From Moniliella sp. 'wahieum' (Eukaryota), in contig RSEE01000077.1 in assembly GCA_003971905.1 (NCBI GenBank), positions 62,001 through 126,000 on the forward strand: 64,000 nt of DNA, written 5' to 3'. Position numbers and translations under genes: made by a program. Below, one piece after another: positions 4,927 to 62,887 of this stretch; positions within the stretch are counted from its first letter, which is position 1, and each line of letters begins with the position of its first letter. The notes under the pieces are model-generated. The model was given only the letters and a program-made list of their open reading frames with translations. It was not told where the DNA came from and did no database searches.

Positions 4927-7305
4927 TGCGAACGATGGACAGTGCGGGCGAGACGGGCGAAGCGGAAAGAAGGCAGGAAAAGGGAAAGAGAGAGGAAGGA
5001 AGTCAGGTGGAAGAAGAGCAAGTGCGACCGTCCGCTTCGCCGGCCTCAGGCCTCACCGTCGACGCCAGCCCCGCCTGCGCTCTCCTTTCGTTCGCCAGCC
5101 CTGCTCCCCACCTTCCTGGCTTCCGCCTGGCTTTGCGCAATCGATATTCAATCTTCGGTAGTCCCTCCCCTGCGCCTTGTGGGAAGACAGGACTATCTCC
5201 GAATTGCATCATTGCACATCCGGCGGTACCTTCCCCGCACAAACCTACTTCGTTGGAATGAAATTGAAATATCATTGGCAAGCTGCACGAGGCCCGAGGG
5301 CTCTTTCCTACCAACAAAGAAATGGAGAGTCACTAGTCACTAGTAAGCTTGAAAGAGACAAAAATATGGTGTGTGGTCGTGTAGTAGACGCGCTCTGCCC
5401 GTACAAAGTCAGCAAGGCAAAACCGACTCCGGCAAGTTAGTAAACTTCCCATCTTATCGTTCCGGGGTATACCTGGCAAGGTGGTGTTGTTGGTCTCAGA
5501 TCATGATCTCCACCCTAAGGGATGATGACGATGATGGAAAGGGAAAAACCCATCACTGGCACCCCGCTCAAAAGTGGCGCCCTCTCCCCCCTTTCCTCCA
5601 CACGCGAGGGGCCCGGCTGGAAAGCCACACAACCCAGTCTTTCATTCTCGCCACACATCTGTGCGCTTGTAACATGTAAGGCGGGATAGGTCTGAGAAGG
5701 GCGCGCAATGAGCGCTGAACGTCCCATCGCCATCTCCACACTCCTCACGACTGTAGCCTTTAGTCTGCCCCGTCACTATGGCCCAATCATTTTTCCCAAA
5801 CAAAAAGGCGGGCAGCGAGGACGATCTGACCGTGAGAAACGCATGCAACAGAGGATGGAGGAATACAGCGGCGTGACGATGTACTGACCCACCAAACCGG
5901 TATGAGGTTGAGGTCCATCTCTTCCACGGAGAGCTTGAGGCCGCCCTCAGTAGCGTTTTCACCATATATATATATATATCTTTCACCTAAGCTTTGCTAG
6001 CTCTCTGGGGGCTCAATAACCCTGTTCGGTCGTCTCCCACACAGATCACAGGACGACTCTTCGTGTGTTGGTTTCCGAGAGGACAGGGAGGCGTCCCCGG
6101 CCGTAGGAGAAACTCCGTGTGGCGTCCATTACGCGGACCCGAGGGAGGAAATAGTACACCCCGAGTAGGTCATCGAACGTGCGTGTGCGGATTGCACCAG
6201 TCCATTATACCGGCTCCGTGCAATGCTGTAGAGACTAGGGTGTCAGCCGCCCAGAATAGGCACACAGGTGGGGGAAGTACACAGGGTCTAAACTCAAAAT
6301 GATTGATTAGGAAAGAAGGTTCGAAGGACTTTCATTAATCATTACCGAAAACGTACTAGATTATAGGACCTACATAGTATACTCAGTACGCAAGACTCAG
6401 GATTCAGCATGAAGGACACTCAGTACACCCAGTACTCGCCTATCATCAGGCCTGAGTCTCAGACCTCACAGGGCACATACTCCAACTGTGACCAGAACAT
6501 CTGCATGGTATCAAGGATATGCACTATAGTACACACTCTTTTGCTGGTGACTGTGTGAGTGACTACTTCTGGGGAGTAAAAACCAGTAACCGCAGTTCCC
6601 GGCAGAGGCAGTGTGGCTACTCCCTGCTCCCTCCTACTCACTGGTGCCGAGCGGGTGGCGACGGGAGAAGGTCAAGAGACACTAATGATTAAAGACGCGA
6701 GACAAACAACACACTCTGCTGCGTCTGTGTTTTGCGGCTGCGATGGTGGGTGCAAGCTGTCCATCATCAAGCTATGGCTGGCCAAGGTGCGGGGAAGGGA
6801 CGGGGTTAGTGTCGCCCTCGGCAGTACTGGTTGTGCGGCCTGGCGCGGAAGCCAGTTGTCACGTGACTGCAGAGGGCGCCCGAGTGGTTAGCGCTTAGCC
6901 GTGGCCAGCCTGGCTGCCCCCCCCCCCGGCTCGCCCGCCCTGTCCCCTGCCGCCCCTCAGTGGAAGCGTCTACCACCGTCACCCCTACTGCCTCTTTTCC
7001 TACCACCACCACCTCCCATTCAACCCCCACAGTATTCCTCCCCTCTTGGGCCACAGTGGATTCCCATTCCAAAGCTTTGGGGGTGTATATATACTCTTCT
7101 CTTCTCTCTGTGCAAGTCACGCCCCACCCATATCCTTACGCGGGAATCGCTGCACAGCACCTATCCCTTGCACCTCGGCAACGCCTCTCTCCTTCTGCGT
7201 GGCAACCCCACCCGCCCTTGGCCTTTTCAACTCCCCAGCCCACGTCTCCTTCAAATAATACGATATCAACATATATTTCGTCCCCCCCCCACGTCAACAC
7301 GCCAC

Positions 7306-8870
7306 ATGATGTCTGCCCAGCACGGCCGCTGCAGTCTCAGCCAGACACCCTATGTGCCTGTAGGAAACGACACGGGCCCCCTCAACAGTGATGTGCATTA
7401 CATCCACCAACGTCGCCTAGGTGCCGGTTATTTCGGAACAGTCTCTCTATCCAAGCGCTCGTCTGACCACGCTCTGGTGGCAATCAAGATCGTCCGGCTC
7501 AATGGACACAAAGGCGGACTACCGAGCAACATGGTGCGGCCGCAGCTGAAGGCGGAAATCCGTGCACTTTCTGCCCTCACCCCGCACGATAACATTATTG
7601 GCCTCAAAGCGACTTGGTTCAACTCTGTTCAAAAGTAAGCTTGACCTTCCTTTTCCCCCATTCCCTATAGGGACGGACTAAGTGAGAAAATGGTTCCTTC
7701 GGATGGCCGCTTCGTCTGCTCCTCCCACGTGTGTCCCCGTCGAGATGCTAACGAATTTTATTCAGCGCTTGCGCCCTTGTGTTGACTACGTTCCAGGTGG
7801 ATCTCTGGGCGACCTTATTGCTAAACACCGAGACACCAGGAACAGGAACACCCCATTGGGGTTGGATAGCAGCTTGGTGCAATCGTTGATGCACCAGCTA
7901 CTGCGCGCCATTGACGCTTGCCACAATTACACGGACCCCAATACTGGCAAACAGAGTACCATCGTTCACTGTTACCTCAAGCCCGGCAGTATACTCCTAG
8001 ACGAACGGATGCGACTCAAACTCGCCGACTTTGGTCTGAGCCGCTCCTACCCCCGCGGTACAGGAGGTGTCAAGAGTCTAGGTGGCCCGCTGCATTACCG
8101 CCCCCGAGTTGATCGGCTTCAACCTGAGGGAGCGCATCGTGTGTCCAGCGACGGACATGTATGCGATCGGGTGCATCTTGTACGAAATGTGTACCCTTAC
8201 AACACTCATTCTCCCTCATCCCGAGCGGCGGGAACTCCGTGTGCAGTGGCTCGCTCAAAGGAACTACAACCCGACCTTGCCCCCAGGCTACCCGGCCTGG
8301 TTGACAAAGGTGGTGCAACAGCTGGTCAGCAAACAAGCAAGTGACCGTCCCAGTGCGCGCCTGCTGTTGGCATTGGGCCAGATGACGGTCAGGGCACAAT
8401 CTACCTCCGAGGCTCAAGGCATGATTCCCAGGTCGGACATGCGCTTGCTTAATCCTGATATGACCCAGGGAGCAATCGTCCAAGGCCAGCACCAGCCCCG
8501 TGACGAAGAACAGCAGTTCCAATTGTCCAACGACCGTTTCGCCCACGTCGTGGACTCAATGATCTTGTACAAAAAGTCCAACACAGCCCTGTCGAATGAG
8601 TTAGGAAGGCATATCATGGATGGCCTCAACTCTGAGGCGGAATTGAAGGAACTGGAGAAGCAGGGCGAGGAACTGGACGCGTGGTTCAAGGCGCACTCTG
8701 ATGCCCAAGCTCGGAACCATGAGGAGTGGGCGGAAAAGGTCAATGCGACGTTGTACGATCAAGGGGCCAAGGGTGCGGAGGTGCTGATGTGGGAAGAGGA
8801 ACTTGGAGATGTTGCCCCGGGTGGCATCGTGCGAAGATCAAGTGCAGCGGGACGAATTGGTCATGCCTAA
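7306..8870 (+). CDS. Protein kinase-fold protein, catalytically degenerate (pseudokinase or pseudogene) with acidic coiled-coil tail
   Basis: LGAGYFGTV, VAIK, AEIRAL, HDNIIGL, intron ~7635-7766, DYVPGGSL, IVHCYLKPGSILL (HRD..N lost), LADFG, APE, DMYAIGCILYEM. Confidence 0.8.
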
Positions 8871-9152
8871 CCCCAAACTAGACTGACGGTCTCTCCGTCT
8901 ATCCCCCCCCCTTGTGGGTTTTTCTATCGGTTTTGTCCTGATCAACATCATTAGAGTATTGTCTTCAATTCAACAGCGCCTCTTTCCCACCCCCATGGCT
9001 TTGGCAAGCATCCTTTTTCTGTACGACAGCAACGTTACTGTTCTTATTCTTATCCATGACTTTTGTCCCTTGAAGAATCCATCTGTGGTCCACCAGTCCG
9101 ACTGAAATATTCCGCACTAAAAAAGGTAGAACAGAGAGGTAGAAATAAAAAG

Positions 9153-9247
9153 TGACTTCGCCCGGGATCGAACCGAGGACCTTATCCGTTAACTTGGGCA
9201 CTAGGCCAGTGTTAAGGATACGTGATAACCACCTACACCACGATGCC
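9153..9247 (-). tRNA. tRNA-Val(AAC) with 21-nt intron, copy 1
   Basis: Cloverleaf GGCATCG..TATCC-TTAACA[intron]C-GGATA..GGTTCGATCC..CGAAGTCA followed by a T-run Pol III terminator. Confidence 0.92.
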
Positions 9248-10642
9248 GTATGCTACTGGAAGATATCATGTTTTCAAGACATGGCATAGGTGCCGCTTGC
9301 GTCTCGCCAGGACTATCTCTGTGAGGGAATTGTGCACATGCAGACGCAGGCAAAAGGTGAAAACAGATGCTTCAGTTCATGAACAGAACAAAGGGCAGAA
9401 CCCCAGGCCGACGAACCGGGAACGGGATCCGGGCGTAATAGTCCGGAACCCGTGCTCGTTCGCACAGGAATATGTCGGAAGAGAGGCCGTCAATAATAAC
9501 CACCTTCAAGCTCTGCCCTAGGATCTTTTCCCGCGGACCTGCAGTATCCAATCCTATCCTTGCCTGTAGTGCGATATCGGTCGCTCCAAGCGGCCCAATA
9601 TGGTGTGGGAGAACGGTCCGTACGGTCTCGTGTCCCATCAATAACTGCCAGACTCTCTCGGCATGGAAAGCATCGTATTATTACCCTTTCGGGGCCCACA
9701 TCAATATTCAATTCCCTCTTCCGTCGTCACCACAACACCCTCCCGAAGGTACATGATGGCAGAGCCAGACGAGGATTCCCTGTGGACCTATATACACCGT
9801 ACTGGGTCCACCGGTCACTAGGTCACTAGCCATTGGCCCCCTCTACTGCCAACATTCTCGCAGCATCGAGTTGTTACCAAAACAATCAACAAGTTCGCAG
9901 GATGACCTTCAACTCGGCACTCTCTGTTGAAGTGTTGTTCTCCCCTCCGTCGTCGCAAAAAGAGTATGGGTAGTAGAGGGGAGCGCATCCTGCCGCTGCT
10001 GTGGCTTCTGCACATAATATACACGTCCACTGTACGGACTGACGAAGAGAGGATCCTTGAAACTGGCCAATGGCGGAGATGGCCCTGTAGACCAACGGTC
10101 GCTTTGTTCTAGTGGAGTGCCAAAGATCACCAATTCCCATTGGCCCTGGTGGGTCCGCTTGCCCTGGTAATGGAGTGAATGACCATCAGAATGAGAAGGA
10201 GATGTGAGATCTGACAGGCTGAGAACTACGAGAGGAGTGCTAGGGTTCCCATGCACGGCCCTATCAAGACGATCGGTGACCGGTGACCGGTCACCACGAG
10301 GTTGCTCGCTGCTCGGGCGAATGGACTGCGCTCGCAGGCTGCGCACTGGGGCACACTTGCCTGCGGGGGGACGTGGGGAGTGGTGCTGGTGACATGTGGG
10401 TGCTGTGACGTCAGCAAAGGCGGGGCTGCATGGTGGGTGAATGCATGATGCATGGTGCAGTGCATGATGGCTGGCGGATCGGCAGCCGCCTCCTGTTAGG
10501 ATTACGTCGATTGCGCCCCCCCGCCATGCATGTCGAAGGAGCGTCCATGTGGTCGGGCGCACCCCTTGTGCTTGCCCTCCACTAATATAGCCATAGCCGC
10601 ACGCACAGCTGCTGCTGCTGCTGCGCCCTCTCCCGCCTCGCC

Positions 10643-12461: not shown

Positions 12462-12967
12462 GGCCCAAGGCCGAGTGGCACGCGATCAAATGGAAGAAAC
12501 GCTGATCTACTTTTCTCTCTTTCCTCTTTCTTTTCTGGTGTTATGCGGATCTACATGAAATATAATGAATCTTGGATCTTGACTCTTGAATCTTGATCTG
12601 TGGTGCAGATGCGCGACTCACCCTTACTTGGCCTACCCCCACATTGACGCAACGTCTTTGACGAGGCTCACTCGCAACCATTCTTGCCACATCTCTTCCT
12701 TTTTTTGCACACAAAGCTGGGGCCGCCCGCGCACTATCTTTCTCGTTTTGCTCTCTCGTTGACAGAGTCTGGTTCTTGGGGCGACGCTCATAGGACGACG
12801 AGGTGTACTTTAATGTAGCATCTTTAGGATACAGCAGACGGGGTTGGATATTGAAGCACATAGTGTAACGTCTGTCCATTGTCTGGTGATGGTAGATATG
12901 GTACACCTTTTGCGCACCTGGTTGAATGGTGAGGCCGGTGAAGTTGAATTGCAATAGGCATGCCTCT

Positions 12968-12997
12968 TGAAGCTTGAAGCTTGAAGCTGATCGATGA
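12968..12997. repeat. Heptamer array TGA-AGCT x2-3 running into TGA-TCGA-TGA
   Basis: TGAAGCTTGAAGCTTGAAGCTGATCGATGA. Confidence 0.9.
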
Positions 12998-14403
12998 TGT
13001 TACTCTTGAGATCTGAACAGAGCGCCTCCGATGCCGAAGCCAGAATTCGTTCGAGGGCAGCCGCGCAGGGTCGCCCAGTACAGCCACTGCGCCGCCGCTC
13101 CAAGCGCGTCACTGACGCGTGCTTGGCAAATCAAACTCTAACCGGCACTCCATTCCCATTCACCCGCACATGTCCCACTACCTACCTCCTGTTCTCTCCC
13201 TTGCGCTGGGCGAACGAAATCGGCTGTACATTCAGGTTGAAGCATGAGCCACGAGTACTGAGTTGATACGAACAAGGCATGTTCGAATCTTCGCTTCTCT
13301 CATGGCCCCGCCAGGGGGCTCGCTCGAGTTGTGGGTGGTACGATCCCTTAGGGGACGGTACTAGGGAGAGAGAGGTCTTTGGTGGGGCGGCTGCACGTGT
13401 GGCAAAAGGCTGTATCTGCACCGGCTTGGGCCGTAGTAATGTGTCTGAAGCCTTCGGGACTTAGGGACGGGAGGAGGCAGTGGTAGACAAACACTGCCTT
13501 AACTGAGACCGGATAGAGACTGGAAATCGATCGCGGCTGAAGGAGGGCTCGCGCGACTGGACCGATGGCGTGCTGGAGGACGAGATCGGAAGAGGAGTCG
13601 GAAGCTAAGAAGGGAGGATGCTGCCTTACTGGATCAATTGGCTGGAAAACGGGCAGGAGTCGGACAGGATAGGCGGGAGGGACGGGAGGGTGGACAAGGA
13701 CAAGAGTGAAGACGAGAATGGAAGAGTGGGGGAAAGGATCCCCATCAACCGAGGTACAGGCAAGATTAATAGGGAAAACGGATACAAGAGGGGGGTATAG
13801 AAAGGAAGAACGTCAAAAGAGGGGTTGGTCGCTACAGAGGCGCGCGACCGAGAAGGAAAAGGACGCGGGGATAGGCGACGGTCGTCACAAAATACTGTGG
13901 CCTTATTTGGGCCGACGGCCGGGCGGGGGGCGACTCTTGTCGCGAGGATGCATGGCCCCACGGCCACGTACCTAATTTAAAAGTTAACCAACCATCATCA
14001 CATTCACATGTCATGCATGTCACACTTGGTTGGACTGCGGAGCACGCTCCACTGGGCATGTGCAGAGCAGGCGGGGCTTGGCTTGGATCGGACCATCTCA
14101 TGTCCAACGGCATCAACGTCATCAACAGCCGTGGACTTGCCAGGCCCCGCGCCATTTCGCTGGCCAGCCACAGCACTGTAAGTCAGAGCTGCGTCCGGCG
14201 CGTGTCGGAACAAGCGTCACGCGCGTCACGCGTCAAGGTTCAAGGTTCAAGACGAGCTGGTCCCGCCTCTGGAATGCAGCTGTGAATTGGTGCGCCGGCC
14301 GGCGGATCGACTGGACAAGTTGATCAAATGGGTCAAGCGGATCAAGCGCAAGCTCTGGATTCGGAGCGCTGCATGATGGAAATGGAGCGGATCGACAGAC
14401 AAC

Positions 14404-14428
14404 GTACTAAGTACTAAGTACTAAGTAC
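14404..14428. repeat. Heptamer array GTAC-TAA x3
   Basis: GTACTAAGTACTAAGTACTAAGTAC. Confidence 0.9.
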
Positions 14429-16472: not shown

Positions 16473-16567
16473 GGCATCGTGGTGTAGTTGGTTATCACGT
16501 ATCCTTAACACTGGTCTAGTGCCCAAGTTAACGGATAAGGTCCTCGGTTCGATCCCGGGCGAAGTCA
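16473..16567 (+). tRNA. tRNA-Val(AAC) with 21-nt intron (16511-16531), copy 2
   Basis: Same cloverleaf as copy 1 with 2 substitutions; TTTTTT terminator directly downstream. Confidence 0.93.
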
Positions 16568-16929
16568 CTTTTTTGGTTGCTTGTTTGGCCGGTTGGTCCC
16601 ACCCAACAAACCCAACCGACCAGGCCGAGGTGGTCTTTCTTTGGCCGCCACGCAGCAATGAAGTTAATGAAGCCTCATTACTACGGCCTGCTGGCCCTCC
16701 ATCCGTCATTCGTCGTCATCCGCGTCATCTACCACAGCCACCCGGGACGAAGCTGTTCGTCAACGTTCATCGTTCATCGTTCATCGTTCATCGACATGCA
16801 ACTCATGAGCGCCCACTGCGATGAGCACGGAGCCGATACGAAGGCATTAAGCATTCGTATCCCGTAACGCGTAACACATACCCCGCCAATTGCGCCCGCG
16901 GTCCAACCGTACACCCAAGCCGCGACTTG

Positions 16930-18125
16930 GTCTCCGTTCTCCGTTCTCCGTTCTCCGTTCATCTTTCAGCACGCTCAATGTTCACCCCGCCTGCCCCTGG
17001 CTGCCCCTCATTGATCACTAGTCACTCCCTCCCCGCCTACTAAACCAATTCTAGCCAAAGTAGCCCCCTCCAATTCCCCGCGTCGTACGAGCCACTAAGT
17101 AGCGAAGCTACTAGCCCCCTAGCCCCCTAGCCCACAACCATCTGCAATTTTTCGCGACGAACCGCGGCGCGGGGATCTGTTTGGCCAACGCGAGGCCGCG
17201 AGCCAACCGCGTAGCCAACCGCGTAGCCAACCACGTAGCCAACCAGCTAACCAGCGAGAAGAAACCGACCGGGATACCGAGATGGACAGATATTACTAGT
17301 GCGCGCGCAAGCCCAAGATAATACATGTACAACCTCCTCCGACATTGCCACCACGTCGTAGTGGAGGAGTCTCCCGGTAGCCACCCCCGAAGCGTACGAC
17401 TATTAACGGCCCAGCATGCGACACGGGGCAAAGCGCTCAGCACGTGGCACACGGTACACGTACACGGTACACGGTACACGGTACACAGCATGCAGCATGC
17501 AGCAAGAGGTGCGTGAGAGCGGGGTCGCGGTCGCACGCGCGCGTGGCCGAGTCCAGGAACAAAGGGAGAAGAAGAGAGAGGAGCAGGATCGAAATCGCGA
17601 TCGAAATCGCGATAGAGACCGAAATCGCGATGGAGATGAAGACGAAGATGGGGATGGAGATGGAGATGGAGATGGAGATTGAGAACGAAACAAAGCAAAA
17701 CGAAACGAAACAAATCAAAACAAATCAAAACAAAACAACACCCAGCGGCGAAGGGGGAAGGGGGAAGGGGAAGGCCTAAGGGAGAACAAGGGCGTGGGAA
17801 AGGAACAGAGGAAGATCAAAGACCAAAGACCAAAACCCTCCTCTTAGTACGCACAGTACCGACCCGAGGTACGACGCACGACGGAGGACGCACGACGCAC
17901 AAGGCAACAGGCACGAAGCACAAGGCACGAAGCACGAGGCGCGAGGCAACAGGCACGACGCAAGAAAGGAAAAAAAATAAACACCACCCAGCCACCCAGC
18001 CAATCGAAAGGGACTGAACGAATATTGAATCCGCAACCGCTACCCCGCCCATGCGTTCCATCGGGTTTAGGTCTCCCCCTGGCCCTGGCCCTTATCCCCT
18101 CCCACACCCACACCCACACCCACAC
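16930..18125. repeat. Cluster of short tandem repeats downstream of OPI1
   Basis: (CTCCGTT)n ~16932, (GCGTAGCCAACC)n ~17200-17243, (CACGGTA)n ~17450-17485, (GGAGAT)n ~17655, (CAAAA/CGAAA)n ~17690-17735, (CACACC)n ~18103. Confidence 0.85.
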
Positions 18126-20484: not shown

Positions 20485-21189
20485 GGTGGGGGGGCAGACG
20501 GGTGGTGGTGGTGGTGGTGGTGTGGCGGCGTGGTGGCGGTGGTGAGGGGCAGAGGGGCTGGCGCTGCGGCAGACGGCGGCGGGTGCGGGTGGATGGATGC
20601 GGTTGGATGCTGGGGTGTTGCTGGCTGGGGCTGCTGATGTAATGCGCAGCTGGTGTGTGGCGGGGTGCCTGCGTGCGCTGCGCTGTGGAGGAGGCGGGGA
20701 CAACCCATGCGAGGGGCGCTTGCCTGCGTTGGCCACTCGCTGCTTGCGCCGGCTGATTAATGATTAATGGGTAGTACGCTTAGTCCTTAGCCGTTGCGAA
20801 ACGGCGCCCACGGTGGCCATCTGTCTCGCCCCGTCCCGTCCCGTCCGTCCCAGCCCACGCGCAGCTGCGAGGGGAGCGTGCACACAGACAGCACCCACAG
20901 CGCGATGGGGCGCCGTGCCAGCCAACTGGCAACCCAAACAAACGCAGCGCCTCTCCGCCTCCCCCGCTGTGCCTGGGTCTGGCCGTGGCAGCATGACATG
21001 CATGACATGTGGCAGCCGAGCGGCGACCATCGCATCATCCGTCATCGCTCATCGCTCACGCATCATCATGTGACCCACTCGTTCACGTCCGCTTGTCATG
21101 CATGCCATGTCATCCATCATCACACGTCACGCGCAGACAGGCCTCCAGCCAGACTCATCCTCCGGCGTCGGGGGATTCAAGCTTCAGCT

Positions 21190-21231
21190 TCACGCATCAC
21201 GCGTCACGCATCACGCATCACGCATCAAGCA
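21190..21231. repeat. Heptamer array TCA-CGCA/CGCG x6
   Basis: TCACGCATCACGCGTCACGCATCACGCATCACGCATCAAGCA. Confidence 0.9.
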
Positions 21232-23305: not shown

Positions 23306-24324
23306 GCACTAGGCACTAGCGCGCAGATGGCAAGTTGGATACGGGCATGTATCCTCCCCAGTCTGCTGGGGACCGATTCGTTCCCCTCCATTCCATTTTC
23401 ACCCCCCATTGCCTTCCCTTCCATCCCACGTTCCTACCCTACCCTGCTACGGGTACAAACAATTTCTGTTTCCCATGGCGCACGGAGCGAAAACGTACCC
23501 CACGCACTTAGGTGAGCGTGCAGTGTACGTGTACAGCACAGACCAGACGGTTGTAATGCCGCCCCACCAGAGTGGGCAAAACACACTCTCCCACACAGTT
23601 GCAGGTACTTCCCCTCCTGCCTGCCAGTCACCAGTCACAAGTCATACATCCTAACGCCCAGCTGCGAACGGAGGGAGAGGCTGTCCCCACGTACCTACTG
23701 AGAACTGATCGATGATCGTCCTACTACAGGTGCCCGTTCCGCGGGAAACGGGGGCGCAGGCAGATCCCTCAGGGGGCGCCTGTGAGGTCGGAAGTCGGAG
23801 GGTAAGCACAAGAACCGAAGACGAAGCAGGACACGAACTTGGCTGCACAGCCGGCTATGCTGCCATACAAGGCACCCCGGGGAAGTCGTGGTCGTTGTGG
23901 CGGCACTGGCTGCTGCCCGTGGGAAAGTCCAATATGGTGGATAAGGTTGTGCTGGGCGCCGCGCGTGACCAAACGACCGGCTTGGCAGAGTGAAATGGTG
24001 AGGTGCGATGGGCGCGTCTGGAGACCTTTTTTGAAGTGGTGCATGGTGCATGGTGCATGGTGTATGGGTGCATGGTGTATGGACATGATGCGCGTGCTGG
24101 CAGAACGTCTCGTACTTAGCTTGATTGGTCACCCTGCCCCCTGAGCCTCAGACCTGAGCTTCAGGCCTCATCCTTCCCCGTGGCAGTGGCCAAGTGAGCT
24201 GGCCCGACGGCTGGCCCGACGGCTGGCCCGACGGCCACAGTGGGACCAGTAGCCTGGGAGAGGGGTCAAAACTGGTACTACACTGCTGCACGGTACTCTG
24301 GTTCACACACGTATATGGTCTTCT

Positions 24325-24552: not shown

Positions 24553-25989
24553 CTGGCATAAATCCTAACAACCTCAAGCCATGTACCATGTACCGGTATC
24601 TTCTCTGTGTGGGGCTGCCCAAGCTGGTCAGAACAGAAGGACCAATGAACGATGATCGATCAGAACGGCAAGGACACAGGGCGCATCCTCTGGTGCATAT
24701 TGCATCCAACCTGCCTATGGGTGTGGTAACGTGTACGATGGATAACGCGGGTATTGTAGCTCGCGTCGAGGACGCGCGTGGGAGTGCGAGATCCGAGTGC
24801 CGCGACTGGGATCAAATCTCAGAACTGTCAAGCTTCAAGCTCTCTCAAGCTTCAAGCTCGATCTTAAGAGACGAGCGGGGGGCTGCTGGTCGCGCTGATC
24901 TGGGGACGAGCACGAGTACTGAAGCTTGAAGCATGAAGCTTGAGTACGTTTAGTACTCAGGCGGAGTGAACTGTGTATATTCAAGGCAGCCACCATGTAA
25001 CTTCGGACTTAAATCGTGCGGGGAGCGGATGATCGATTTGATGAGCGCAACGATGTGCGCCAGTGAGTCGGCGTGGCTGGCTGGCCAGGGTGGAAGTGGA
25101 TGTGAGATGTGATGATTGGATGTGATAGGTCCAACACCGTGGCTGGGAAGGGCTGGGATGCAGGATGGACGCGATGGAATCTGGAGCGATCAGAGGAGGT
25201 AAAAGGTGGTAAGCGAGAAAGGGTAGTCTCCGGTACATGTCGTAGCGAAAAGCCGTGGTAATGCAAACGTAACCATGGCGGCGCGAGGCCTGAGTGAGAC
25301 GTTGGCGTTGCGGACCATGGACAGGAGGGTGGGGGGTGAGTGGTACGGTGTACTGGTGGTGGGGAAACGGGGGCGCAGGGGGGATGGGTGGGAGATCTTG
25401 GACCAGAAGCAGAATCCAATTACTTGGGTGTGACGTGTGGCAGGTGACATTACCGCGTACGGGGGATAAGTTGGTTGAACGTTGAAAGTTTGACTAAGGA
25501 CTGCGTATCCAATCAGTTTGATCAGCTTAGCGCGTACTCAGCAACAGCACACCAGGTACGTGGTAGGGTTAGGAAAGGGTGGCCATTACGTCAGATGGAT
25601 CTTAGCCGTCCGTGTTTAGTCAGGCTGAGCGGCTACTGCCTGTTGAGCGAAATAAATGGAGCAGGCACCAGGGCGGCGGCTACCGGGTGCTAGTTTACGT
25701 TCACTGGGCAGCTGAGGCCTTGCCTGTTATACGCCAGTTGGGCGCACGGGCAGCAGGGCATCCCGACACCCCAGGCCGTTTGATTTGAAGCGCTGGCTGA
25801 GCCGCGCCGACTGGGACCGCGCTGAGTTACTCCGTGCGCTCGCACCAGGGCTGCGACTCAGCCTGAGCCAGGTCCAGCCAGAGCTCCTGGGTGTCTGAAT
25901 CTGAATCTGAATAGTGCGTAGTGCGTAGTGCGTCGTGCCTAGTGCTGACTGGTTCCGATTATCAACGCAGCACAGAGAGGGGCGAGCGA

Positions 25990-26040
25990 TGATCGATGAT
26001 CGATGATGGCGATGATATCGATAATCGATAATCGATAATC
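25990..26040. repeat. Heptamer array TGA-TCGA / TAA-TCGA
   Basis: TGATCGATGATCGATGA..TCGATAATCGATAATCGATAATC. Confidence 0.9.
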
Positions 26041-26569
26041 GGCACTGGTCGTGCTCGGGCTGGCACTGGCGCAGAGCGAGGCAGGCGGGACCGAGGGGAC
26101 GCACCCGGCGGAAGCCTCAAATGGTTGATGGTCGATGATCGATGAGCGCTTTCTTCGCGCTCTGGATGTGGATGTGGATGAGGAGTGGGCTCTGGTTCTG
26201 GCTCTGGCTTGGAATCTGAGTCTGGGTCTGAGTCTGAGTCTGACTCTGTGAGAGTCAGGCACGCGGCGTGGGAGGGGCGGTGGCACACAGCCGCCATGCG
26301 GGCCGCTCGACTGCCGCATGGCTAGCATGGCTGCTCGTGGGAGTGACCAGTACTCAGTACTCAGTATGGTCATGTCACATGCACATGTCCTCGGCCTCAC
26401 CGCCCTAACCCTCACATCGCCCATCGCACCCTCCATCTCATCATCCCAGACGGCAGCCCAGCTGGGTTGGTTTGACTCTCTCTCGTTCTCCCCGTGCTCG
26501 TCCCTCTCGTCTCCCACCCGCCACGCACCGCCGCTTCGTACCGCCCCACGGCTCTCTCTGCGCCGCGCC

Positions 26570-42482: not shown

Positions 42483-43366
42483 GGTAGTGTTTGCACCAAA
42501 ACTGTGGGAGGCCGTGAGGGATGGGCGCTGAGCAGTGGGAAGAAGAGAGAGAGGCGGTGGTGGGACGGTGGAGAGCATGCGCATCCTCCTTTAGCATCTC
42601 GACCGCCCCAGCTGAGGCACCACTCAATGCCTCAATGCCTCAATGCCTCTGCGCCTCGGGCCTCAGCATGGATGTTGTGATGGGGACGCTGGTGTGTTGT
42701 GCGCGGTGCTGAATCAATTAATCAACGTTCAACACAACACGGCCCTGTCTGCCACCGCGCCTGTTTCTCTCGGGCCTTTCCGCCCGCCCGGGCCAGCGCA
42801 GCGCAGGGCGGGGTTAAACGTTAAACGTTAATTAACCCAAGCGAAGGACTCATGCGAAATGATTTTCATGTCATGCTGCATGCCGGGCCGAAGCTCCCTG
42901 ACATATTGCGTCATTGGGGCTCTAGGGCTGTGCCTCCGTGGAGTGTGCGATTGGACGAAGGCTTTGGAAAATAAACGAGACGGACGCTCGCGTTCGGCTC
43001 TCTTCCTCTTCACCTTCTCGTCTTAGATCTTATCGCCCAAGACTCCGCCGGCCTTCCCTTCGTCCTTTTTGCCGGCGGTTAACGCTTGTGGCTTCAAGCT
43101 TCAAGCTTCCAAGTGAGGCTTCACCCCTCAAAGGATTGCCCGTTCCATTTTTTCTCCTTAGTTGTTGGTGCCAGCCTTGTTGGGGGCCCTGCGCTTTAGG
43201 CCACCTATTACAACAAACGATCAATGTTCACAACGTACTGCAACGAGGACGTTGCTGACGCGTTGAAGCTCAGCCTGAGCCCTCAGCCTGAGGCGACTTC
43301 TAGAGCGGAATTATGCATCCAGAGAGCCAAAACATCAAAAAGTAGCGCGACTGAGAACCAAAAAAG

Positions 43367-43460: not shown

Positions 43461-44743
43461 TTATGAGAGTGCAATGTGGTATGCAAAATGGGGTACATTC
43501 TACACTCTCTGCTGTTCTCTGATACAGGATTCGGACCTTGCCTTGTGCTCTTGGCGCCTCGTCCATCCTTTGGAGGTATATGGAATAGACTGAAGACCTC
43601 CGTCCACCTTCACCAGTCACCTCTGTATTTCCGCGCACCCAGTCTCCCACCCTATATGCCCTAGCATCGAGCATCCCTGTCTGTATCCGTAGCATCCAGC
43701 GCGGCCAATCGGGGGGAAACAACTGTATACTATTTACTGACGTTGGTCGAACATCACGGGAAGGAGAGGGTGAAGCTATGATGTAGTGCCAGAGACACCG
43801 TATCTAAAGTGCGAATGCTGCTTCGTCTCGGATGGAAGTAACTAATGCACGGGGCTTAGTGAACAACGCTGTGGTGCATTTGTGCTGGCTACTAACAGCT
43901 CGGACAGCATGGACATGTCGGGGGCGCGGGCCGGAGTGCGGGCGTCTTCGTGTCATGGGCGAGCCCGGTTCCGGCGAGGGGGGCGGGAGGCCGCCAGAGT
44001 GGCTGAGGTGGTGTTTGACTTATTTATACGGGAAATACCGAGGCGGGGCTGCGATGGGGGTGTGGGAGAAGTCTCTCTTGTCACCATGAGGGAGACGAGC
44101 AAGGCAGGGGTCAGAATGGTGGGGATGCAATCATGGGGGAGGCAGCCCGGAGGCGCAGCGAAGGAGCGGAACAGAGGCGGATCGGGACCACCTCGCACAA
44201 TGCTCCCAACAACCGTTACTAGTTACTACTCTCATGCAGGCACATGCCTTGCGTCTGGTGTTCGGCGGGCGGCGGCGCAGAGGCTGCCCCAGTGGCGGGA
44301 TCGACGTGAGGCCTGAGGCCTGAGGCAAGACAGGATCCGAGACACCCAGAGGCTATATCCATGTCTCAGGATTTTAAAACCCCGCTGCGCCGGCCACCCA
44401 CGACGCTCGTCCAGCGGCAGTGTGGTGATCCAGGTTAGTCAACGTGCGGGGAAGGCACGGGGGCAGTGTTGCAGCGGTGGTCGGGCAGGCGCACAAACAG
44501 TGTGCGGTGCTGGGCTAGGATTTGGAGGCCAGATGCAGCGGCCAGCGCCTAGCCTGACTCCCGCTCCCACCGCGCCGTCCCTTCCCCCCCCCCCTTAAAA
44601 GACCAGATCAGTGCCGGCACTGCTTTCACTTTTATCACCTCCACTTCCAGCTGCAAGAGCATTTTCCCTGCCTTTCAACCACAGGGCATCGGACGCCTAC
44701 AAGGCCACCTCCCCCAGTAAGAACGACCAGCTATCGAACCGTC

Positions 44744-49969: not shown

Positions 49970-50263
49970 TCTGATCCAGCTGATCCACCGGTTCCTTTGG
50001 GGTCTCCACCACCGCCCCCTTGGGTCTGGCCAGGCAAAAGTGCAAAACCAGCTCGGATGTGCCGCGCGGTGCGGTGTGCGGAGCATCCAGCACGGGGGCT
50101 CTGTCGTGTCACGTGGCCATCCCATCAACTAGCGATCGCCACTGTCACCTGTCACAGATGCCATGCCACACCCAGCACCAGCCGCACGGCGCCAGTCACC
50201 GTTTCACCGGTCGCCTGCTATTGGCCACCGGGCCGGCCAAGGCTGCCGCAGCCACACTGCCAG

Positions 50264-50304
50264 TCACTAGTCACTAGTCACTAGTCTAGCACTAGTCATC
50301 GATC
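50264..50304. repeat. Heptamer array TCA-CTAG x3+
   Basis: TCACTAGTCACTAGTCACTAGTCTAGCACTAGTCATCGATC. Confidence 0.9.
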
Positions 50305-50519
50305 ATTGCATGACTCTAGGCACGGTCACATGCCACGTGTCACATGTCACAGCCAATCGCCTGTCCAAGCAGATGCTGATACCACAGCAGACACGCACAG
50401 TGCCATGCGGCTGCCATGGCACCTTGGCTTGCAGCGTTGGACGTCCAGCTGGACGGGTGTCTGGTGGATCCTTCCATAGTCCTTTGCCCACACTCGGCAA
50501 CCTTCGCCTTCTGCGCCCC

Positions 50520-52178: not shown

Positions 52179-53065
52179 TTTTCTGGTAGGGCCCGCTCCG
52201 TGCTAAACCGGGGTGGTAATCAGGCGAGAGAGGGGGCGGGAAGGAACGAGCCGGGAGGGGGAAGGGGAGGGGGGGTGGTCGTGAGTGGTTGTGGGTCGGT
52301 AATAGTGTGGGTACCAGGTAGTACTGACTAGGGGACTAGGGTGGCTATGCGGCAGATGCTTGCTATGCGCTTGAACGTTCAACTCGGCTTAATTTGCGGC
52401 TTGCTGGCTACGGCAGGGTCTGTCGCCGGACTTCGGCATAATCGATCATCCAACGATGGACGCATCACCCAGTCACGCCAGGGCACCTCCAGACAGCGCC
52501 AGGGTTAGGTGGGCGCATGACGCGTGAGGCCGTGAGGCGTGACGCATCACGTGACGAGGACTGTGGTGGCAGGTCGTGTGCCACATGTCAGCGATGATTA
52601 ATGAGCGAACAGATTGGACGGTGCAACCTCGCATGAAACGTGAAACAATGAAAATGAAAGATGAACAGTTCTTGCAGGACGCAGGAATTTTGTTACGGGG
52701 GCTGGTCCAGCAAGCAGTGGCGCTGCCTGGCAAGTCGTCACGCGTCAGCGTCAGGGCTCTCCGATCCGAAGGCGCTGACTTGGGCCGCTCAACCAGACGG
52801 CCCAAGAAGTTGCTCGTTTCGCTACCAACTTTCCTTCGGTAGCTGGCGCGCGCGTACAACACCCTCCACATGCCTCGCCTCTTCCCTTCTCTTTGCACAT
52901 CCGCCGGTGTTTCCCACACCTCGCTCGGCCTCCATCCCACCTCCCTCGCCGGGCCGTCTCCAGCATTAGTACTCACAACGACAGCCGCCACTCCCCCCCA
53001 AGATCCATCCATCCACACACATCACACCTCCACCAAATCGTGGCGGCCAATGTGAACATGATCCT

Positions 53066-54199: not shown

Positions 54200-54647
54200 T
54201 ATGACTTTGGCTGTGCCCAGTACTGGCGTGTTGGTGGCCTCTCTCTCCATCTACCTCGCATGTCACGATTTTTCCCCTTGCTGGTATTGTGGACGCGTGG
54301 TAGGAGTCTCCTGCATGCGACAACACGCGGTCTGTAGCTGGGAAATCACTAGCGTAGGGAGACTAGTCACTAGTCTGGGGTCATTTGGTCTCCCCCCCCT
54401 TGGCATGGCAGTGAATGTGGCCCAAGCGGGTATGCGGGGGTATTGGTTTCGACACAAGGCATAAGAGGATACAGCGGATACCACAAAGGAACCTCCGAGG
54501 GAATCGGTGGGCATAGGGCGTGATCTGTTTAGGCTGCCCTCTGCCTTGAGCGCAGCCATTCCTTGCCGCGGATCGCACACCAATGGGCAGGAAGGGGTAT
54601 TTTTGCCAAAAGGGAGATGCAGCGTTCGTACTCGGTACTTCTGACAT
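54200..54647 (-). CDS. Possible small intron-containing membrane protein
   Basis: ATG MSEVPSTNAASPFWQKYPFLPI then hydrophobic GGSFVVSAVSSYAL..PAWATFTAM in another frame; divergent from UBP6. Confidence 0.25.
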
Positions 54648-59419: not shown

Positions 59420-60419
59420 GGACGCGAGCTACGTGCGAATGGAGGGTGGAAGACGGGGCAAATGATACGGATGCGTCGGAGAGTTAGTGGGGCACTGTGC
59501 GGCGGCGACCCACTGTCGACGTCGACTCTAGCTCCAGCACAGGTGCAGCCGGGAGGGCGGAGCGGGCAGATAGATGGGGGAGGAAGGCAGCGAGCCGGCC
59601 GGGCGGACTGGCAGACAGTGGGAGGCAGCCGCAGACAGACGCTCCTACTCGGGCTGGGCCGGAGCGTGCCGGAGCAGGCTGCCCAGCACATCACATGATG
59701 TGTCACAGACGCCCGCCAGACGACGCAGGGAGCTCGTCGCGTTCATCAGCATGCCGGTGATGGATGATGTCGATGACGCCGTATCTCGTATCGCTTCTGC
59801 ATTCTGCAAATAGATTGGCTATGATGTCATACATGCATGATGGATGATGGGTACCGCCAGGTGCTGTCGCCTGCTGCCGTTGTCTACACCTGACGCGTGA
59901 CGCGTGACGGCTGACTGGATGGAGTGTGCTGAGAGATATCCAGGGAGTGCCGAGTGCTGGCCGATATCAATACTTCGAACCGGCAGCTCCTAGATGCAGT
60001 GCGCCGCCCAGGTGATCACCTGTGCTCCGAGTCTCCTCCAGCGGAGGCCAGAATGTGGCCCGCGCACATGCGAGTTGCCACACCAGTGTGTATATGTCGG
60101 GCGACTAGGGACTACAGTTACATGTTATAGTGTAGCACACAGAAGTCATCCGCACAACACAACACATCCGCGTGTATCGGAACAACGTTTCTTGGTCCAT
60201 TCAAGCTCGGCACGGGTATTTGGAGCTCGTGTTCATTAATCATTGCGCCGTGAGCTGTTCTGTTTCTGTTGCGCTGTGGGTTAAAGCTTAAGGGCCCCTC
60301 TTCAGTTTCACAGGTTGAGACTTGCTTTAGTGAGAGTACCATAGCGGTCCCATATATACTCACACTTGTGCTGCTGGCGACCTACGGTGATACATCAAGG
60401 CAATGAGTGCGAAATGACA

Positions 60420-62018: not shown

Positions 62019-62109
62019 CCGTTGGGTCCGAGAATCGACGTAGAGGTGCGGTGGTGACTTTGATATTAGTCACTGGGGATGGGTTACTTTGGTGGTGGTG
62101 GCAGCGGGA

Positions 62110-62133
62110 TAAGCGCTAAGCGCTAAGCGCTAA
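62110..62133. repeat. Heptamer array TAA-GCGC x3
   Basis: TAAGCGCTAAGCGCTAAGCGCTAA. Confidence 0.9.
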
Positions 62134-62887
62134 GCCAGCCAACGATACTATTCTTATAGGGACAGCAAACAGCCAGGGGTCAACGGCCCTGGCGTCAGTA
62201 GCCCCTGGATACGGGGAGGGACAAGGAAAACAAAGGCAGTGAAAGGGAAAGAACACGTCCGAGCTCCTATATAGACCTGTTCACGGGGGAAGCGATGGTC
62301 TTTGGTCGATGGCCCCTGGTCCAAGCGCACGAGCCAACGAGCCACCCTGTGGCTCGTCATCGCGCCACACGCGTCATCGGCCATCTCTATAGTCATATCA
62401 TTTGCAGGGCACAAGGCTGGGGCAAAAATGCTGCGCCCAAACCGACCTGAGCATCAGGCCTTGGTTGTTGGTGCCAAAACCGCTCCTGTAGTAAAAAACG
62501 AGTGAGCTGGCACCTGCCGATGAGGCGTCGGTGTGGGAGTGGGGCATGTCGGAGCGTGAAACAAGTCGAGCGTGAAGAAACGTTAGTGGAGCGCTGCAAC
62601 TTGAAACTTGGAGCAGGCCGAAGAAACGCGTCGCGTGCAATCCGTCGACGCTGGCGCCGTGCCGGAGGCTTGACGCGTGAACGCGTGAACGTTGAACGTT
62701 CAACTCTCCGCAGTACGTCGACCCGCCTAGGGTTACGCGTCGACGCGCCCCACACTGGCGCGGTGCCGCCTGCTCGAGGCGCCATGCGGGGGCGGGCGAT
62801 GGCCGGCGCATTCGCCACCCTCAGCCAACACGCGCATTCACCGCCCTCGCACACCAGCCATCGTCCTCTGCCCCCTCCCCCGCGGCC

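Follow-up and report, generated by a model that had tools for sequence, protein, structure and literature searches.

The non-coding DNA of this window, a 64-kb stretch of one basidiomycete nuclear genome from which all counts were taken, is dotted with 7-base insertions that repeat a TNA triplet around a 4-bp palindrome, some of which have grown into short tandem repeats. We read these units as 7-bp scars left at T-N-A by a cut-and-paste element that excises through hairpins, with arrays formed by repeated hits and slippage, a reading to which we give a probability of roughly 45%. No description of such TNA-palindrome scars was found in the literature searched.

The repeat grammar of TNA plus a 4-bp palindrome, proposed in an earlier note on this DNA, is real and strong. 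All 30 coordinates cited there carry the motif, though several sites described as arrays proved to be solo or imperfect instead (e.g., 6887, 32434, 40457, 52518). The 10-mer with a 4-bp palindrome between two TNAs of the same N occurred 80 times, compared to 2.01 ± 1.44 (maximum 6) in 100 dinucleotide-preserving shuffles, and with any N it occurred 94 times, compared to 7.2 in dinucleotide shuffles. Both TNAs had the same N in 80 of these 94 sites, indicating that TNA is a direct repeat, and N was complementary (TGA..TCA or TCA..TGA) in 7. Between identical TNAs, 4-nt palindromic cores numbered 80 against 2.15 expected, while those of 2 nt (8 against 7.7) and 6 nt (3 against 0.7) were not enriched, so that the geometry is fixed; non-palindromic 4-nt cores numbered 80 against 32 expected, TNAs without a core 43 against 34, and other spacings were near background. 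By triplet class, T.A gave 80 against 2.2 expected and the runner-up, G.G, 18 against 7.0, with no enrichment in the window for A.T, C.G and G.C (4 against 1.8, 4 against 7.6, and 6 against 6.5). The remaining triplet classes, the other core lengths and the non-palindromic cores all fell well short of this level. The N of TNA tracked background triplet frequencies, TGA and TCA forms numbered 32 and 30, and no base preference was seen at other flank positions; since T.A alone was enriched, the target is TNA alone. Fourteen of the 16 tetramer palindromes served as cores, at similar frequencies, one more than the 13 noted earlier, as ATAT is present at 9701 and 33084; AATT and TATA were indeed absent from the window (0 against 3.7 and 2.6 expected).

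Exact period-7 arrays of at least two copies numbered 67 in the window, with 122, 83 and 17 arrays at periods 5, 6 and 8. The repeat unit can equivalently be written as a 6-bp palindrome, A-xyy'x'-T, plus one base, and 29 of the 67 arrays were of the 6-bp palindrome plus one nucleotide type, 28 of them A....T and the exception a single GCATGC+A array. These 28 of 67 compare to a uniform expectation of 2.7% (binomial p = 3.5e-26); the remaining 39 comprised 9 with a 4-bp palindrome only, 29 without a palindrome, and the GCATGC+A array. With the TNA-palindrome arrays taken out, period 7 was no longer anomalous. The loci are given below by window coordinates, with triplet and core, units, run length, and the flank that matches a core half.

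3371..3384: TCA+CATG, 1 unit, 14 bp, both flanks
3558..3569: TTA+TCGA, 1 unit, 12 bp, right flank
5042..5055: TCA+GGCC, 1 unit, 14 bp, left flank
5328..5344: TCA+CTAG, 1 unit, 17 bp, both flanks
5668..5679: TAA+CATG, 1 unit, 12 bp, left flank
5709..5718: TGA+GCGC, 1 unit, 10 bp, neither flank
6332..6344: TCA+TTAA, 1 unit, 13 bp, right flank
6888..6899: TTA+GCGC, 1 unit, 12 bp, right flank
9701..9712: TCA+ATAT, 1 unit, 12 bp, right flank
10205..10214: TGA+GATC, 1 unit, 10 bp, neither flank
10274..10291: TGA+CCGG with TCA at the end, 18 bp, both flanks; 14-bp perfect palindrome GGTGACCGGTCACC
12966..12988: TGA+AGCT, 2 units, 23 bp, left flank CT equal to the core's last half
12988..12998: TGA+TCGA, 1 unit, 11 bp, adjoining the AGCT array to form a two-core locus
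13007..13016: TGA+GATC, 1 unit, 10 bp, neither flank
14004..14013: TCA+CATG, 1 unit, 10 bp, neither flank
14222..14251: two-core locus CG-TCA-CGCG-TCA-(AGGT-TCA)x2-AG; left core CGCG derived from left-flank CG, right core AGGT (a single substitution off AGCT) from right-flank AG
14404..14428: TAA+GTAC, 2 units, 25 bp, both flanks
16760..16793: TCA+ACGT solo, then (TCA+TCGT)x4.3, TCGT being one substitution from TCGA and expanded as such (slippage)
16863..16875: TAA+CGCG, 1 unit, 13 bp, left flank
17015..17026: TCA+CTAG, 1 unit, 12 bp, right flank
20754..20769: TGA+TTAA, 16 bp, right flank
21176..21227: mixed TCA+AGCT, TCA+CGCA, TCA+CGCG, (TCA+CGCA)x3, a decayed core multiplied by slippage
23706..23718: TGA+TCGA, 1 unit, 13 bp, right flank
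24161..24170: TCA+GGCC, 1 unit, 10 bp, neither flank
24828..24858: TCA+AGCT, two 14-bp runs with CTC between
24920..24943: TGA+AGCT, TGA+AGCA, TGA+AGCT
25474..25486: TGA+ACGT, 1 unit, 13 bp, left flank
25987..26041: (TGA+TCGA)x2 ... (TAA+TCGA)x2, core continued by flanks CGA and TCG
26132..26145: TGA+TCGA, 1 unit, 14 bp, left flank
26348..26366: TCA+GTAC, 19 bp, both flanks
29591..29656: 18-nt perfect inverted repeat, its right arm the TCA+GGCC array at 29627-29645 and its left arm the reverse complement of that array
30064..30075: TGA+AGCT, 1 unit, 12 bp, right flank
30198..30213: TGA+CATG, 16 bp, right flank
32431..32452: TCA+GATC (left flank TC), then TCA+TGTC x2
32659..32695: (TGA+AGCA)x3, then TGA+AGCT solo (right flank AG)
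32730..32741: TGA+GGCC, 1 unit, 12 bp, left flank
33084..33093: TGA+ATAT, 1 unit, 10 bp, neither flank
33184..33219: solos TCA+TCGA (left flank) and TCA+TGCA
33534..33561: TGA+TCGA, TGA+TCAA, TGA+TCGA
36601..36613: TCA+CGCG, 1 unit, 13 bp, left flank
38977..38989: TAA+TCGA within a Pfam-matched amino-acid-permease exon, probably a chance match rather than a scar
39959..39970: TGA+CGCG, 1 unit, 12 bp, right flank
40321..40334: TCA+GGCC, 1 unit, 14 bp, left flank
40396..40407: TGA+TGCA, 1 unit, 12 bp, left flank
40457..40468: TCA+GATC, 1 unit, 12 bp, right flank
42722..42733: TCA+ACGT, 1 unit, 12 bp, right flank
42813..42831: TAA+ACGT, 2 units, 19 bp, left flank
43021..43032: TTA+GATC, 1 unit, 12 bp, left flank
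43091..43109: TCA+AGCT, 19 bp, both flanks
44215..44228: TTA+CTAG, 1 unit, 14 bp, right flank
44307..44326: TGA+GGCC, 2 units, 20 bp, right flank
50262..50306: (TCA+CTAG)x2-3 (left flank AG) ... TCA+TCGA solo
50338..50351: TCA+CATG, 1 unit, 14 bp, both flanks
52518..52545: TGA+CGCG, then degenerate TGA-spaced units (GGCCG, GGCG, CGCA)
52594..52604: TGA+TTAA, 1 unit, 11 bp
52736..52747: TCA+CGCG, 1 unit, 12 bp, left flank
54362..54375: CTAG-TCA-CTAG, core-TNA-core form
59891..59909: TGA+CGCG, 2 units, 19 bp, right flank
60117..60127: TTA+CATG, 1 unit, 11 bp
60233..60244: TCA+TTAA, 1 unit, 12 bp, right flank
60281..60291: TAA+AGCT, 1 unit, 11 bp
62110..62135: TAA+GCGC, 3 units, 26 bp (5 + 3x7), right flank GC
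62671..62702: TGA+CGCG, then (TGA+ACGT)x2 with TCA-AC at the end; 14-bp perfect palindrome GTTGAACGTTCAAC

The earlier note described tandem arrays, but most loci are solo units, a new finding: 60 of the 70 runs hold one unit, 9 hold two and 1 holds three. The commonest run length was 12 bp (17 runs), equal to TNAxy-y'x'-TNAxy, with no peak at 14 and with the series 12, 19, 26 populated. Solos of the form TNA-core-TNA were abundant, compared to only five core-TNA-core solos without flanking TNA; decayed 14-mers ((1,2)+(2,1)) numbered only three. The dominance of TNA-core-TNA solos and the peak at 12 bp indicate that the event is an insertion of the core plus a TNA. Coding-like sequence makes up 35.6% of the window but holds 4 of the 80 sites, as expected of frameshifting scars. 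Among about 1360 non-coding TNA sites, roughly 5% bear a scar (70 runs), a level at which repeated hits predict roughly 7 two-unit loci; 10 were seen.

At 52 of the 70 loci, one half of the core repeats the dinucleotide that adjoins TNA and the other half is the reverse complement of that dinucleotide (25 right flank, 16 left, 11 both; 8.5 expected, p = 5e-33), indicating that the core is templated from flanking host DNA and not from transposon ends. The change read from the sequence is TNAxy to TNAxy-y'x'-TNAxy, a gain of 7 bp. At the two-core loci 14222-14251 and 12966-12998, each core, left and right, is built from the flank on its own side. Cores matched neither flank in 18 of the 70 runs, and about 7-8 of 10 pure 10-mers, judged by eye, retain the outer base, which suggests later substitution. 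Flank-matching non-palindromic cores were one substitution off a palindrome in 21 of 29 cases, compared to 40% expected, and form a decay series; arrays with mutated cores show slippage acting.

A flank-templated palindrome is, by analogy with the P-nucleotides of hAT/Ac footprints, the signature of hairpin-capped breaks. We infer that a cut-and-paste element would insert at a staggered cut with TNA in the middle and so duplicate 7 bp of target (nnTNAnn), an outcome that is indistinguishable from a 5-bp duplication plus two P-nucleotides because the distinguishing bases are lost. Excision would form hairpins on the flanking DNA, as with hAT, Mutator-like and Transib/RAG enzymes, and opening of a hairpin 2 nt off its tip would leave a 4-nt palindromic 3' overhang. 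End joining would retain one of the two overhangs, converting ancestral ...l2l1-TNA-xy... into ...l2l1-TNA-xyy'x'-TNA-xy... or, with the left flank as template, into its mirror form; either product would add 7 bp and regenerate TNA targets. The both-overhang product, TNA-pal4-pal4-TNA, occurred once, with flanks that do not fit. Later hits at a locus would add further units of the existing core when they fall on internal sites, or bring in a second core at the boundary site; arrays, those of mutated cores included, would then lengthen by replication slippage and erode by point substitution. The best reading therefore merges two models of the earlier note: stacked excision footprints, which fit the same-N repeat, the TNA-core-TNA solos and the number of multi-unit loci, and hairpin repair, brought in by the host-flank origin of the palindrome.

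The responsible enzyme or element would lie outside the window. The terminal-inverted-repeat element with a TNA duplication envisaged in the earlier note was not found in the window, nor was one with a 3-, 5-, 7-, 8- or 9-bp duplication, and no transposase domain was present among the window's 240 ORFs of at least 110 aa. Two further features count against hairpin excision: the density of scars, very high given that no transposon copy remains in 64 kb, and a uniformity of outcome that is unusual for end joining.

The same scar could arise without a mobile element, from an endogenous nuclease or polymerase error at TNA, which we consider rather doubtful. TNAxy-y'x'-TNAxy would result if staggered cleavage and fill-in were followed by a short turn-around synthesis, or if strand-displacing synthesis from a nick in TNA switched to the displaced flap and then returned. 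The lack of element and transposase in 64 kb, the very uniform product and a hit rate of ~5%, more like that of an intrinsic mutational process, favour such a route, and if Axy were copied backwards as y'x'T, the final T of the copy could anneal again at the T of TNA. That complementarity would, however, serve ANT, CNG and GNC equally, and these classes showed no enrichment, so that a TNA-specific enzyme would still be required. A polymerase would also not be expected to turn back invariably at 2 nt beyond the A, yet 2-nt and 6-nt palindromes are at background, and a direct duplication with inverted nucleotides is the classic result of insertion followed by hairpin excision (PMC4561436, PMC5499845).

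Excision footprints in the literal form first proposed, with a 3-bp TNA duplication of PIF/Harbinger type and a palindrome made of 2 bp from each inverted terminus, predict precisely the observed TNA direct repeat and 4-bp palindrome, and PIF/Harbinger elements do target TNA with a 3-bp duplication (PMC4561436). This anatomy is nonetheless very unlikely: to account for 14 cores at comparable frequencies, some 14 families would have to differ in their terminal dinucleotides, no such element was found in the window, the flank match in 52 of 70 runs is inexplicable by element termini, and mPing/PIF excision is reported in that source as precise and footprint-free. The flank match of the cores largely refutes it.

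Still less probable are selected cis-regulatory sites, whether for a factor reading TGA/TCA half-sites at 7-bp spacing, as the earlier note suggested, or as three-frame stop codons. In their favour, non-coding DNA holds most of the sites, some of them clustered between divergent genes (9 loci in 32.4-33.6 kb, 6 in 52.3-53.0 kb), and TGA and TAA at a 7-bp period arithmetically hit all three frames. Yet the cores are arbitrary copies of adjoining bases, N follows background, TGA and TCA are equally common and can stand together upstream of one gene, loci are mostly single units, and there are sites between convergent gene ends too (29630, 30064, 30198). Ordinary microsatellites, born by chance, grown by slippage and favoured as palindromes through hairpins, are the least credible explanation, for although short tandem repeats of many different periods abound in the window (183 TRF rows) and slippage is evident in mutated-core arrays, duplication of a 7-mer cannot yield runs of 10-13 bp, the arrays had no folding advantage over shuffles (z between -0.8 and -1.8), the more stable C....G and G....C palindromes made up only 1 of 29, and enrichment is confined to T.A. 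Solo 12-mers contradict it.

TNA is also the target of IS5-type elements. No superfamily known to us unites TNA targeting with a 7-bp duplication and flank hairpins, which likewise counts against the hairpin-excision reading. PIF/Harbinger shares the TNA target with the scars but differs by its 3-bp duplication and by excision reported as precise, without footprints (PMC4561436). Galileo makes a 7-bp target duplication with an odd-palindromic consensus (PMC2775673). Flank hairpins, opened by host enzymes, are formed by hAT, Transib, RAG1 and a MULE (PMC5499845). The P-nucleotide footprints of hAT/Ac resemble the flank-templated palindromes of this window.

The heptamer motif that the earlier note had listed for the intergenic DNA of this window, a TNA triplet (TCA, TGA, TAA or TTA) alternating with a 4-bp palindromic core, was present at 30 of the 30 coordinates claimed for it. 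A search for the 10-mer TNA-core-TNA with the same middle base in both triplets returned 80 sites, compared to 2.0 in 100 dinucleotide-preserving shuffles (sd 1.4, maximum 6), so the enrichment anticipated for these palindromic-core 10-mers was borne out. Exact arrays of at least two copies numbered 122, 83, 67, 17, and 13 for periods of 5, 6, 7, 8, and 9 bp, respectively. Among the 67 period-7 arrays, 29 consisted of a 6-bp palindrome plus one base, 28 of these 29 having the A....T form equivalent to TNA plus a palindromic core, while nine others held only a 4-bp palindrome and 29 held none. The chance of a random heptamer being TNA plus a palindromic core is 2.7%, giving p = 3.5e-26 for 28 of 67 arrays, and once these 28 are set aside, period 7 is in line with the smooth fall across the other periods.

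Controls with other periods, other triplets and non-palindromic cores were clear, none producing anything comparable to palindromic 4-bp cores between T.A triplets. Identical TNA triplets with no core between them occurred 43 times versus 34 expected, with palindromic 2-bp cores 8 versus 7.7, with palindromic 6-bp cores 3 versus 0.7, and with non-palindromic 4-bp cores 80 versus 32. When the 16 triplet classes were compared, T.A alone stood out (80 versus 2.2), followed by G.G (18 versus 7.0), with A.T, C.G, and G.C, which like T.A are self-complementary, at background. Both outer bases are required (T..A 80, C..A 12, T..G 11, remaining combinations at most 5). The middle base (C in 29 runs, G in 28, A in 8, and T in 5) follows the background of the window (TCA 980, TGA 978, TAA 383, TTA 380), and TGA and TCA forms are equally common among the sites. 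The wide range of cores described previously as 13 of the 16 possible palindromes also held, except that ATAT cores, not spotted in the earlier note, do occur, which brings the number to 14 of 16. Core usage showed no clear relation to the background frequency of TNAxy, where xy is the first half of the core (Spearman 0.18, p = 0.49), with TCGA, AGCT, and CGCG about 2-fold over background and CCGG, TGCA, and GCGC under it.

The 80 sites resolve into 70 maximal period-7 stretches, or runs, of which 60 have one unit, nine have two, and one has three; most loci are thus not arrays. Only five one-unit loci have a core-TNA-core structure without an outer TNA, indicating that the TNA is the duplicated part and the core the inserted part. 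By length, there were 10 runs of 10 bp, 8 of 11 bp, 17 of 12 bp, 9 of 13 bp, 9 of 14 bp, 5 of 19 bp, and 1 of 26 bp, the peak at 12 bp corresponding to TNAxy-y'x'-TNAxy or its mirror image. Extension patterns (left, right) of (0,2) and (2,0) were seen 11 and 6 times, respectively, and (1,2) and (2,1) together only 3 times, so the 12-mers are not eroded 14-mers, and heptamer duplication cannot yield them. A direct repeat is kept on either side of the scar, as a TNA with the same middle base at 80 of 94 sites and reaching as far as TNAxy in 52 of the 70 runs. One half of the core equals the adjacent flank dinucleotide in 52 of 70 runs against 8.5 expected (p = 5e-33). Of these, 25 match the right flank alone, 16 the left alone, and 11 both flanks, and the other 18 runs match neither. 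Counted by site, the adjacent dinucleotide matches the core at 62 of 80, compared to 18 of 80 for the dinucleotide two bases further out, a control whose own count is raised by cores with internal self-similarity, CGCG being an example. The match in 52 of 70 runs indicates that the palindrome derives from the flanking host DNA, a native dinucleotide being joined to its own reverse complement, and a direct duplication with flank-templated inverted nucleotides is thus directly legible in the DNA. Ancestral sites reconstructed from the periodicity showed no base preference beyond T-N-A. An unbiased scan over periods and lengths of the inverted flank copy (P-nucleotides) was confounded by general tandem repeats and is used here only for the result that 83 of its 146 matches at period 7 and length 2 are T.A.

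Triplets with complementary middle bases (TGA..TCA or TCA..TGA) were found at 7 of 94 sites, TGA..TCA alone (6) being above chance, and an inverted duplication of TNAxy, which predicts TGA..TCA, was rejected as fitting these 7 sites only. The two palindromic forms are unequal in number, with six TGA-core-TCA and one TCA-core-TGA. Two arrays, at 10277-10295 and 62686-62704, switch from TGA to TCA at their end and form perfect 14-bp palindromes, which could reflect an opposite-strand event or a variant with inverted templating. Separately, an identical 16-mer at 21818-21833 and 52367-52382 holds the perfect 10-bp palindrome TGAACGTTCA, whose nGAAnnTTCn layout resembles a heat-shock element.

A direct duplication enclosing flank-templated inverted nucleotides is the classic mark of a break with covalently closed hairpin ends. 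Flank hairpins are described for hAT, Transib, RAG1, and one Mutator-like transposase, with opening by host enzymes followed by end joining (PMC5499845). In the simplest complete scheme that we infer, an element would insert at a staggered cut of 7 bp with TNA at its centre, so that l2l1TNAxy (l2l1 being the left flank) is duplicated, and its excision would leave two hairpins, each of which would then be opened 2 nt from the tip. Opening of hairpins 2 nt off the tip with a 4-nt overhang is known from work on Artemis. The resulting duplex would end exactly at ...TNA and TNA..., with the 4-nt palindromic overhangs xyy'x' and l1'l2'l2l1, and retention of one overhang would give the two mirror products observed, each adding 7 bp. 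The version in which both overhangs are kept was rejected, as its product TNA-pal4-pal4-TNA (pal4, a 4-bp palindrome) has a single instance, at 46065, whose flanks are not those required. A 5-bp duplication with two P-nucleotides is a possible substitute for the 7-bp duplication and gives an identical sequence outcome. The most likely reading of the repeats is that hairpin scars templated from the flank have stacked up at TNA sites, in the simplest case as footprints of a transposon with a 7-bp duplication, to which we give a probability of roughly 0.45 on an evidence base of one window in one genome. The earlier interpretation is in this way supported in part, its underlying observation being confirmed and sharpened.

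Several results bear on whether a transposon was involved. Neither a search for inverted ends beside 3-, 5-, 7-, 8-, and 9-bp direct repeats nor a general inverted-repeat list gave anything convincing in the 64-kb window, and elements with inverted ends and TNA target duplications matching the cores, which the earlier note had suggested looking for, were not found within it. A Pfam scan of all 240 stop-to-stop open-reading frames of at least 110 aa returned housekeeping domains only and no transposase, so that no family combining inverted ends, the same target duplication and a transposase was seen in these 64 kb. A product more uniform than usual end joining, the lack of a convincing product with both overhangs and a very high scar density also count against a transposon, and we know of no superfamily in which flank hairpins go together with a TNA target and a 7-bp duplication. 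A transposon-independent process acting at TNA is consequently a serious rival. Such a process would still need a TNA-specific enzyme, since complementarity alone would equally favour ANT, CNG, and GNC, and it leaves the fixed 2-nt distance unexplained.

Pure slippage is disfavoured as the source of the repeats, since 44 of the 70 runs, those of 10-13 bp, cannot be whole-unit products and array folding energies (29591-29656 apart) are no better than those of shuffles (z -0.8 to -1.8). Slippage does fit the growth of arrays with mutated cores. Among flank-matching non-palindromic TNA-N4-TNA cores, 21 of 29 lie one substitution from the expected palindrome versus 40% expected (p = 4e-4), as do 10 of the 13 that are true tandem arrays, and in the following arrays the mutated core is itself repeated:

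21190-21227, (TCACGCA)n, mutated core repeated
16764-16793, (TCATCGT)n, mutated core repeated
32659-32680, (TGAAGCA)n, mutated core repeated

A core that has mutated could not be made anew by templating from the flank, and the arrays therefore expand by slippage after birth. An intact scar is present at ~5% of non-coding TNA sites (70 runs at ~1360 sites), and with two targets per scarred locus, repeated hits would predict, as a rough estimate, ~7 two-unit loci, compared to 10 observed with at least two units. Two loci carry two different cores and fit births on both sides of a single TNA:

14222-14251, two-core locus, CG-TCA-CGCG-TCA-AGGT-TCA-AGGT-TCA-AG
12966-12998, two-core locus, CT-(TGA-AGCT)n-TGA-TCGA-TGA

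The sole strongly folding array locus, 29591-29656 (-26.6 kcal/mol as single-stranded DNA, z = -6.1), is a perfect inverted repeat with 18-nt arms around a 30-nt spacer. The arms consist of oppositely oriented TGA/TCA+GGCC heptamer arrays, and the locus may have arisen by inverted duplication of an array.

Transposon footprints in the literal form first proposed, with 2 bp contributed by each inverted end, conflict both with the match to the flank and with the occurrence of 14 core types. An array of binding sites for a factor reading TGA/TCA half-sites is contradicted by the arbitrary cores, the free middle base and the equal TGA and TCA counts, T-N-A alone being constant and neither a constant recognition sequence nor an orientation relative to genes being found.

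Coding-like sequence, flagged over 35.6% of the window by a crude codon-usage model trained on Pfam-supported open-reading frames, holds 4 of the 80 TNA-pal4-TNA sites, and the one at 38977, which falls in the permease exon recognized by Pfam, is probably due to chance. Sites are carried by promoter regions of divergent genes, nine loci falling between aldehyde dehydrogenase and SHQ1, and also lie between convergent gene ends (29630, 30064, 30198). The window has a G+C content of 58% and contains ordinary intron-broken fungal nuclear genes (glycogen synthase, aldehyde dehydrogenase, amino-acid permease, Opi1, SHQ1), along with a CSC1/RSN1-type channel, kinases, a UCH protease and a 3'-5' exonuclease. 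One frame was placed by database protein comparison:

56981-59428, minus strand, glycogen synthase open-reading frame

It shares 67% identity with the best named matches (Tilletiaria, Ustilago, Ceraceosorus), 62-66% with other basidiomycetes, and 79% with one unnamed protein, which places the source among the basidiomycetes, probably close to the Ustilaginomycotina. The aldehyde dehydrogenase (30364-32062, minus strand) is split over three overlapping open-reading frames that differ in reading frame and cover Pfam positions 1-118, 127-362, and 360-461, implying very short introns or frame changes. An intron-containing tRNA gene is present in two copies, 9153-9247 and ~43366-43460, both on the minus strand and with 93-97% identity over ~100 nt; it scored 39.5 bits against Rfam tRNA in a local search and was missed by ARAGORN and by the whole-window Rfam search, in which no match reached the gathering threshold. 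The TTA-TCCG-TTA matches within both copies are tRNA sequence and not scars. ARAGORN also reported a 96-nt tRNA-Val (anticodon AAC, 16473-16568, plus strand), presumably intron-containing, directly upstream of TCA+ACGT / TCATCGT arrays.

Short tandem repeats of many periods are unusually frequent in the window (183 TRF rows with a score of at least 30), the largest simple repeat being (GAGAA) in ~47 copies at 24325-24548 with 87% matches. Between 26200 and 29450, many period-6, -9, and -12 repeats lie inside long open-reading frames, one of them with a GATA zinc finger (for example CGCACT x7.8, CCTGGTGGA x5.4, and CTCTAG x8.2), and probably encode low-complexity protein repeats, a class distinct from the heptamers. 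The block at 17449-17962, with dense unrelated repeats of periods 5, 6, 7, 12, 20, 21, and 24 such as (AACAA)11 and (CGAGGCA)14, shows that many short duplications are tolerated or generated by this genome.

If the hairpin-scar reading is correct, the motif would be a mutational signature that is clean and countable, the scar itself revealing the ancestral sequence, and DNA breakage at a target of three bases would be a dominant source of small insertions in this fungus. A concrete route would also be provided for the birth of microsatellites, beyond mere expansion, with 7-bp steps steadily reshaping promoter regions. The motif would further point to a transposase or derived nuclease that forms flank hairpins and has a 7-bp stagger at a TNA target, a combination that we know from no superfamily. 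In dating and strain typing, the scars could then serve as characters that are neutral and polarised. The stronger proposal, an undescribed lineage of hairpin-forming cut-and-paste transposons, or a domesticated nuclease derived from it, with a TNA-only target and 7-bp duplication, that leaves scars at ~1/20 of non-coding TNA sites, seeds heptamer microsatellites and continually remodels promoters, strikes us as doubtful.

The full-text literature that was searched, most subscription journals being outside its coverage, contained no account of fungal palindromic heptamers anchored by TNA, which given that coverage is weak evidence of novelty. Palindromic microsatellites of Fusarium mitochondria are described as (A)n-(T)n structures and are unrelated (PMC7218506). 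Abr1 of Agaricus bisporus, a basidiomycete class II non-autonomous element, is termed hAT-type (PMC10051438). Nothing resembling Abr1 was seen in the window. Abr1 has a 7-bp target duplication with a consensus. Galileo, of the P superfamily, is described with a 7-bp target duplication of odd-palindromic consensus GTAGTAC (PMC2775673). A 7-bp odd-palindromic duplication is common to Galileo and the scheme proposed here, the centre being A-N-T in Galileo and T-N-A here. P-type excision leaves element-derived 3' overhangs, not flank hairpins, and to our knowledge the family is not known in basidiomycetes.

PIF/Harbinger elements share with the scars the target T-N-A with its free middle base, and the bacterial IS5/IS1031 group also uses TNA target sites. 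mPing constructs carried TTA, TAA, TCA, and TGA duplications, and PIF/Harbinger elements are described as making a 3-bp duplication and excising precisely via complementary 5' overhangs, with no footprint when the duplications match (PMC4561436). TNA-TNA is not enriched here (43 versus 34), and a PIF/Harbinger footprint was rejected since, despite the TNA duplication, the core is host-flank-derived and of 14 types.

The scars resemble hAT (Ac/Ds) footprints and the P-nucleotides of V(D)J coding joints in that both copies of the duplication are kept with flank-templated palindromic nucleotides between them, which in those systems are explained by off-centre opening of hairpin-capped flanks (PMC4561436, PMC5499845). 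Unlike hAT footprints, the scars have a period of 7, specify only the central T-N-A, and are almost invariant in outcome. The hAT target duplication is 8 bp with consensus nTnnnnAn, and the hAT hairpin leaves complement-switched single bases. Period-8 arrays number only 17 in this window, and a reversed hAT-like geometry (odd hairpin, 8-bp duplication) was rejected, as it predicts core-TNA-core, of which there are only the five one-unit loci. The canonical Tc1/mariner footprint is, for example, TA-CWG-TA. The scars share with such footprints the two retained duplications and the form of a 7-bp odd palindrome. Stowaway/Mariner footprints are described in PMC4561436, and such footprints can disrupt genes and accumulate. 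Unlike Tc1/mariner, whose inserted bases are element ends and constant per family, the bases inserted here vary with the flank.
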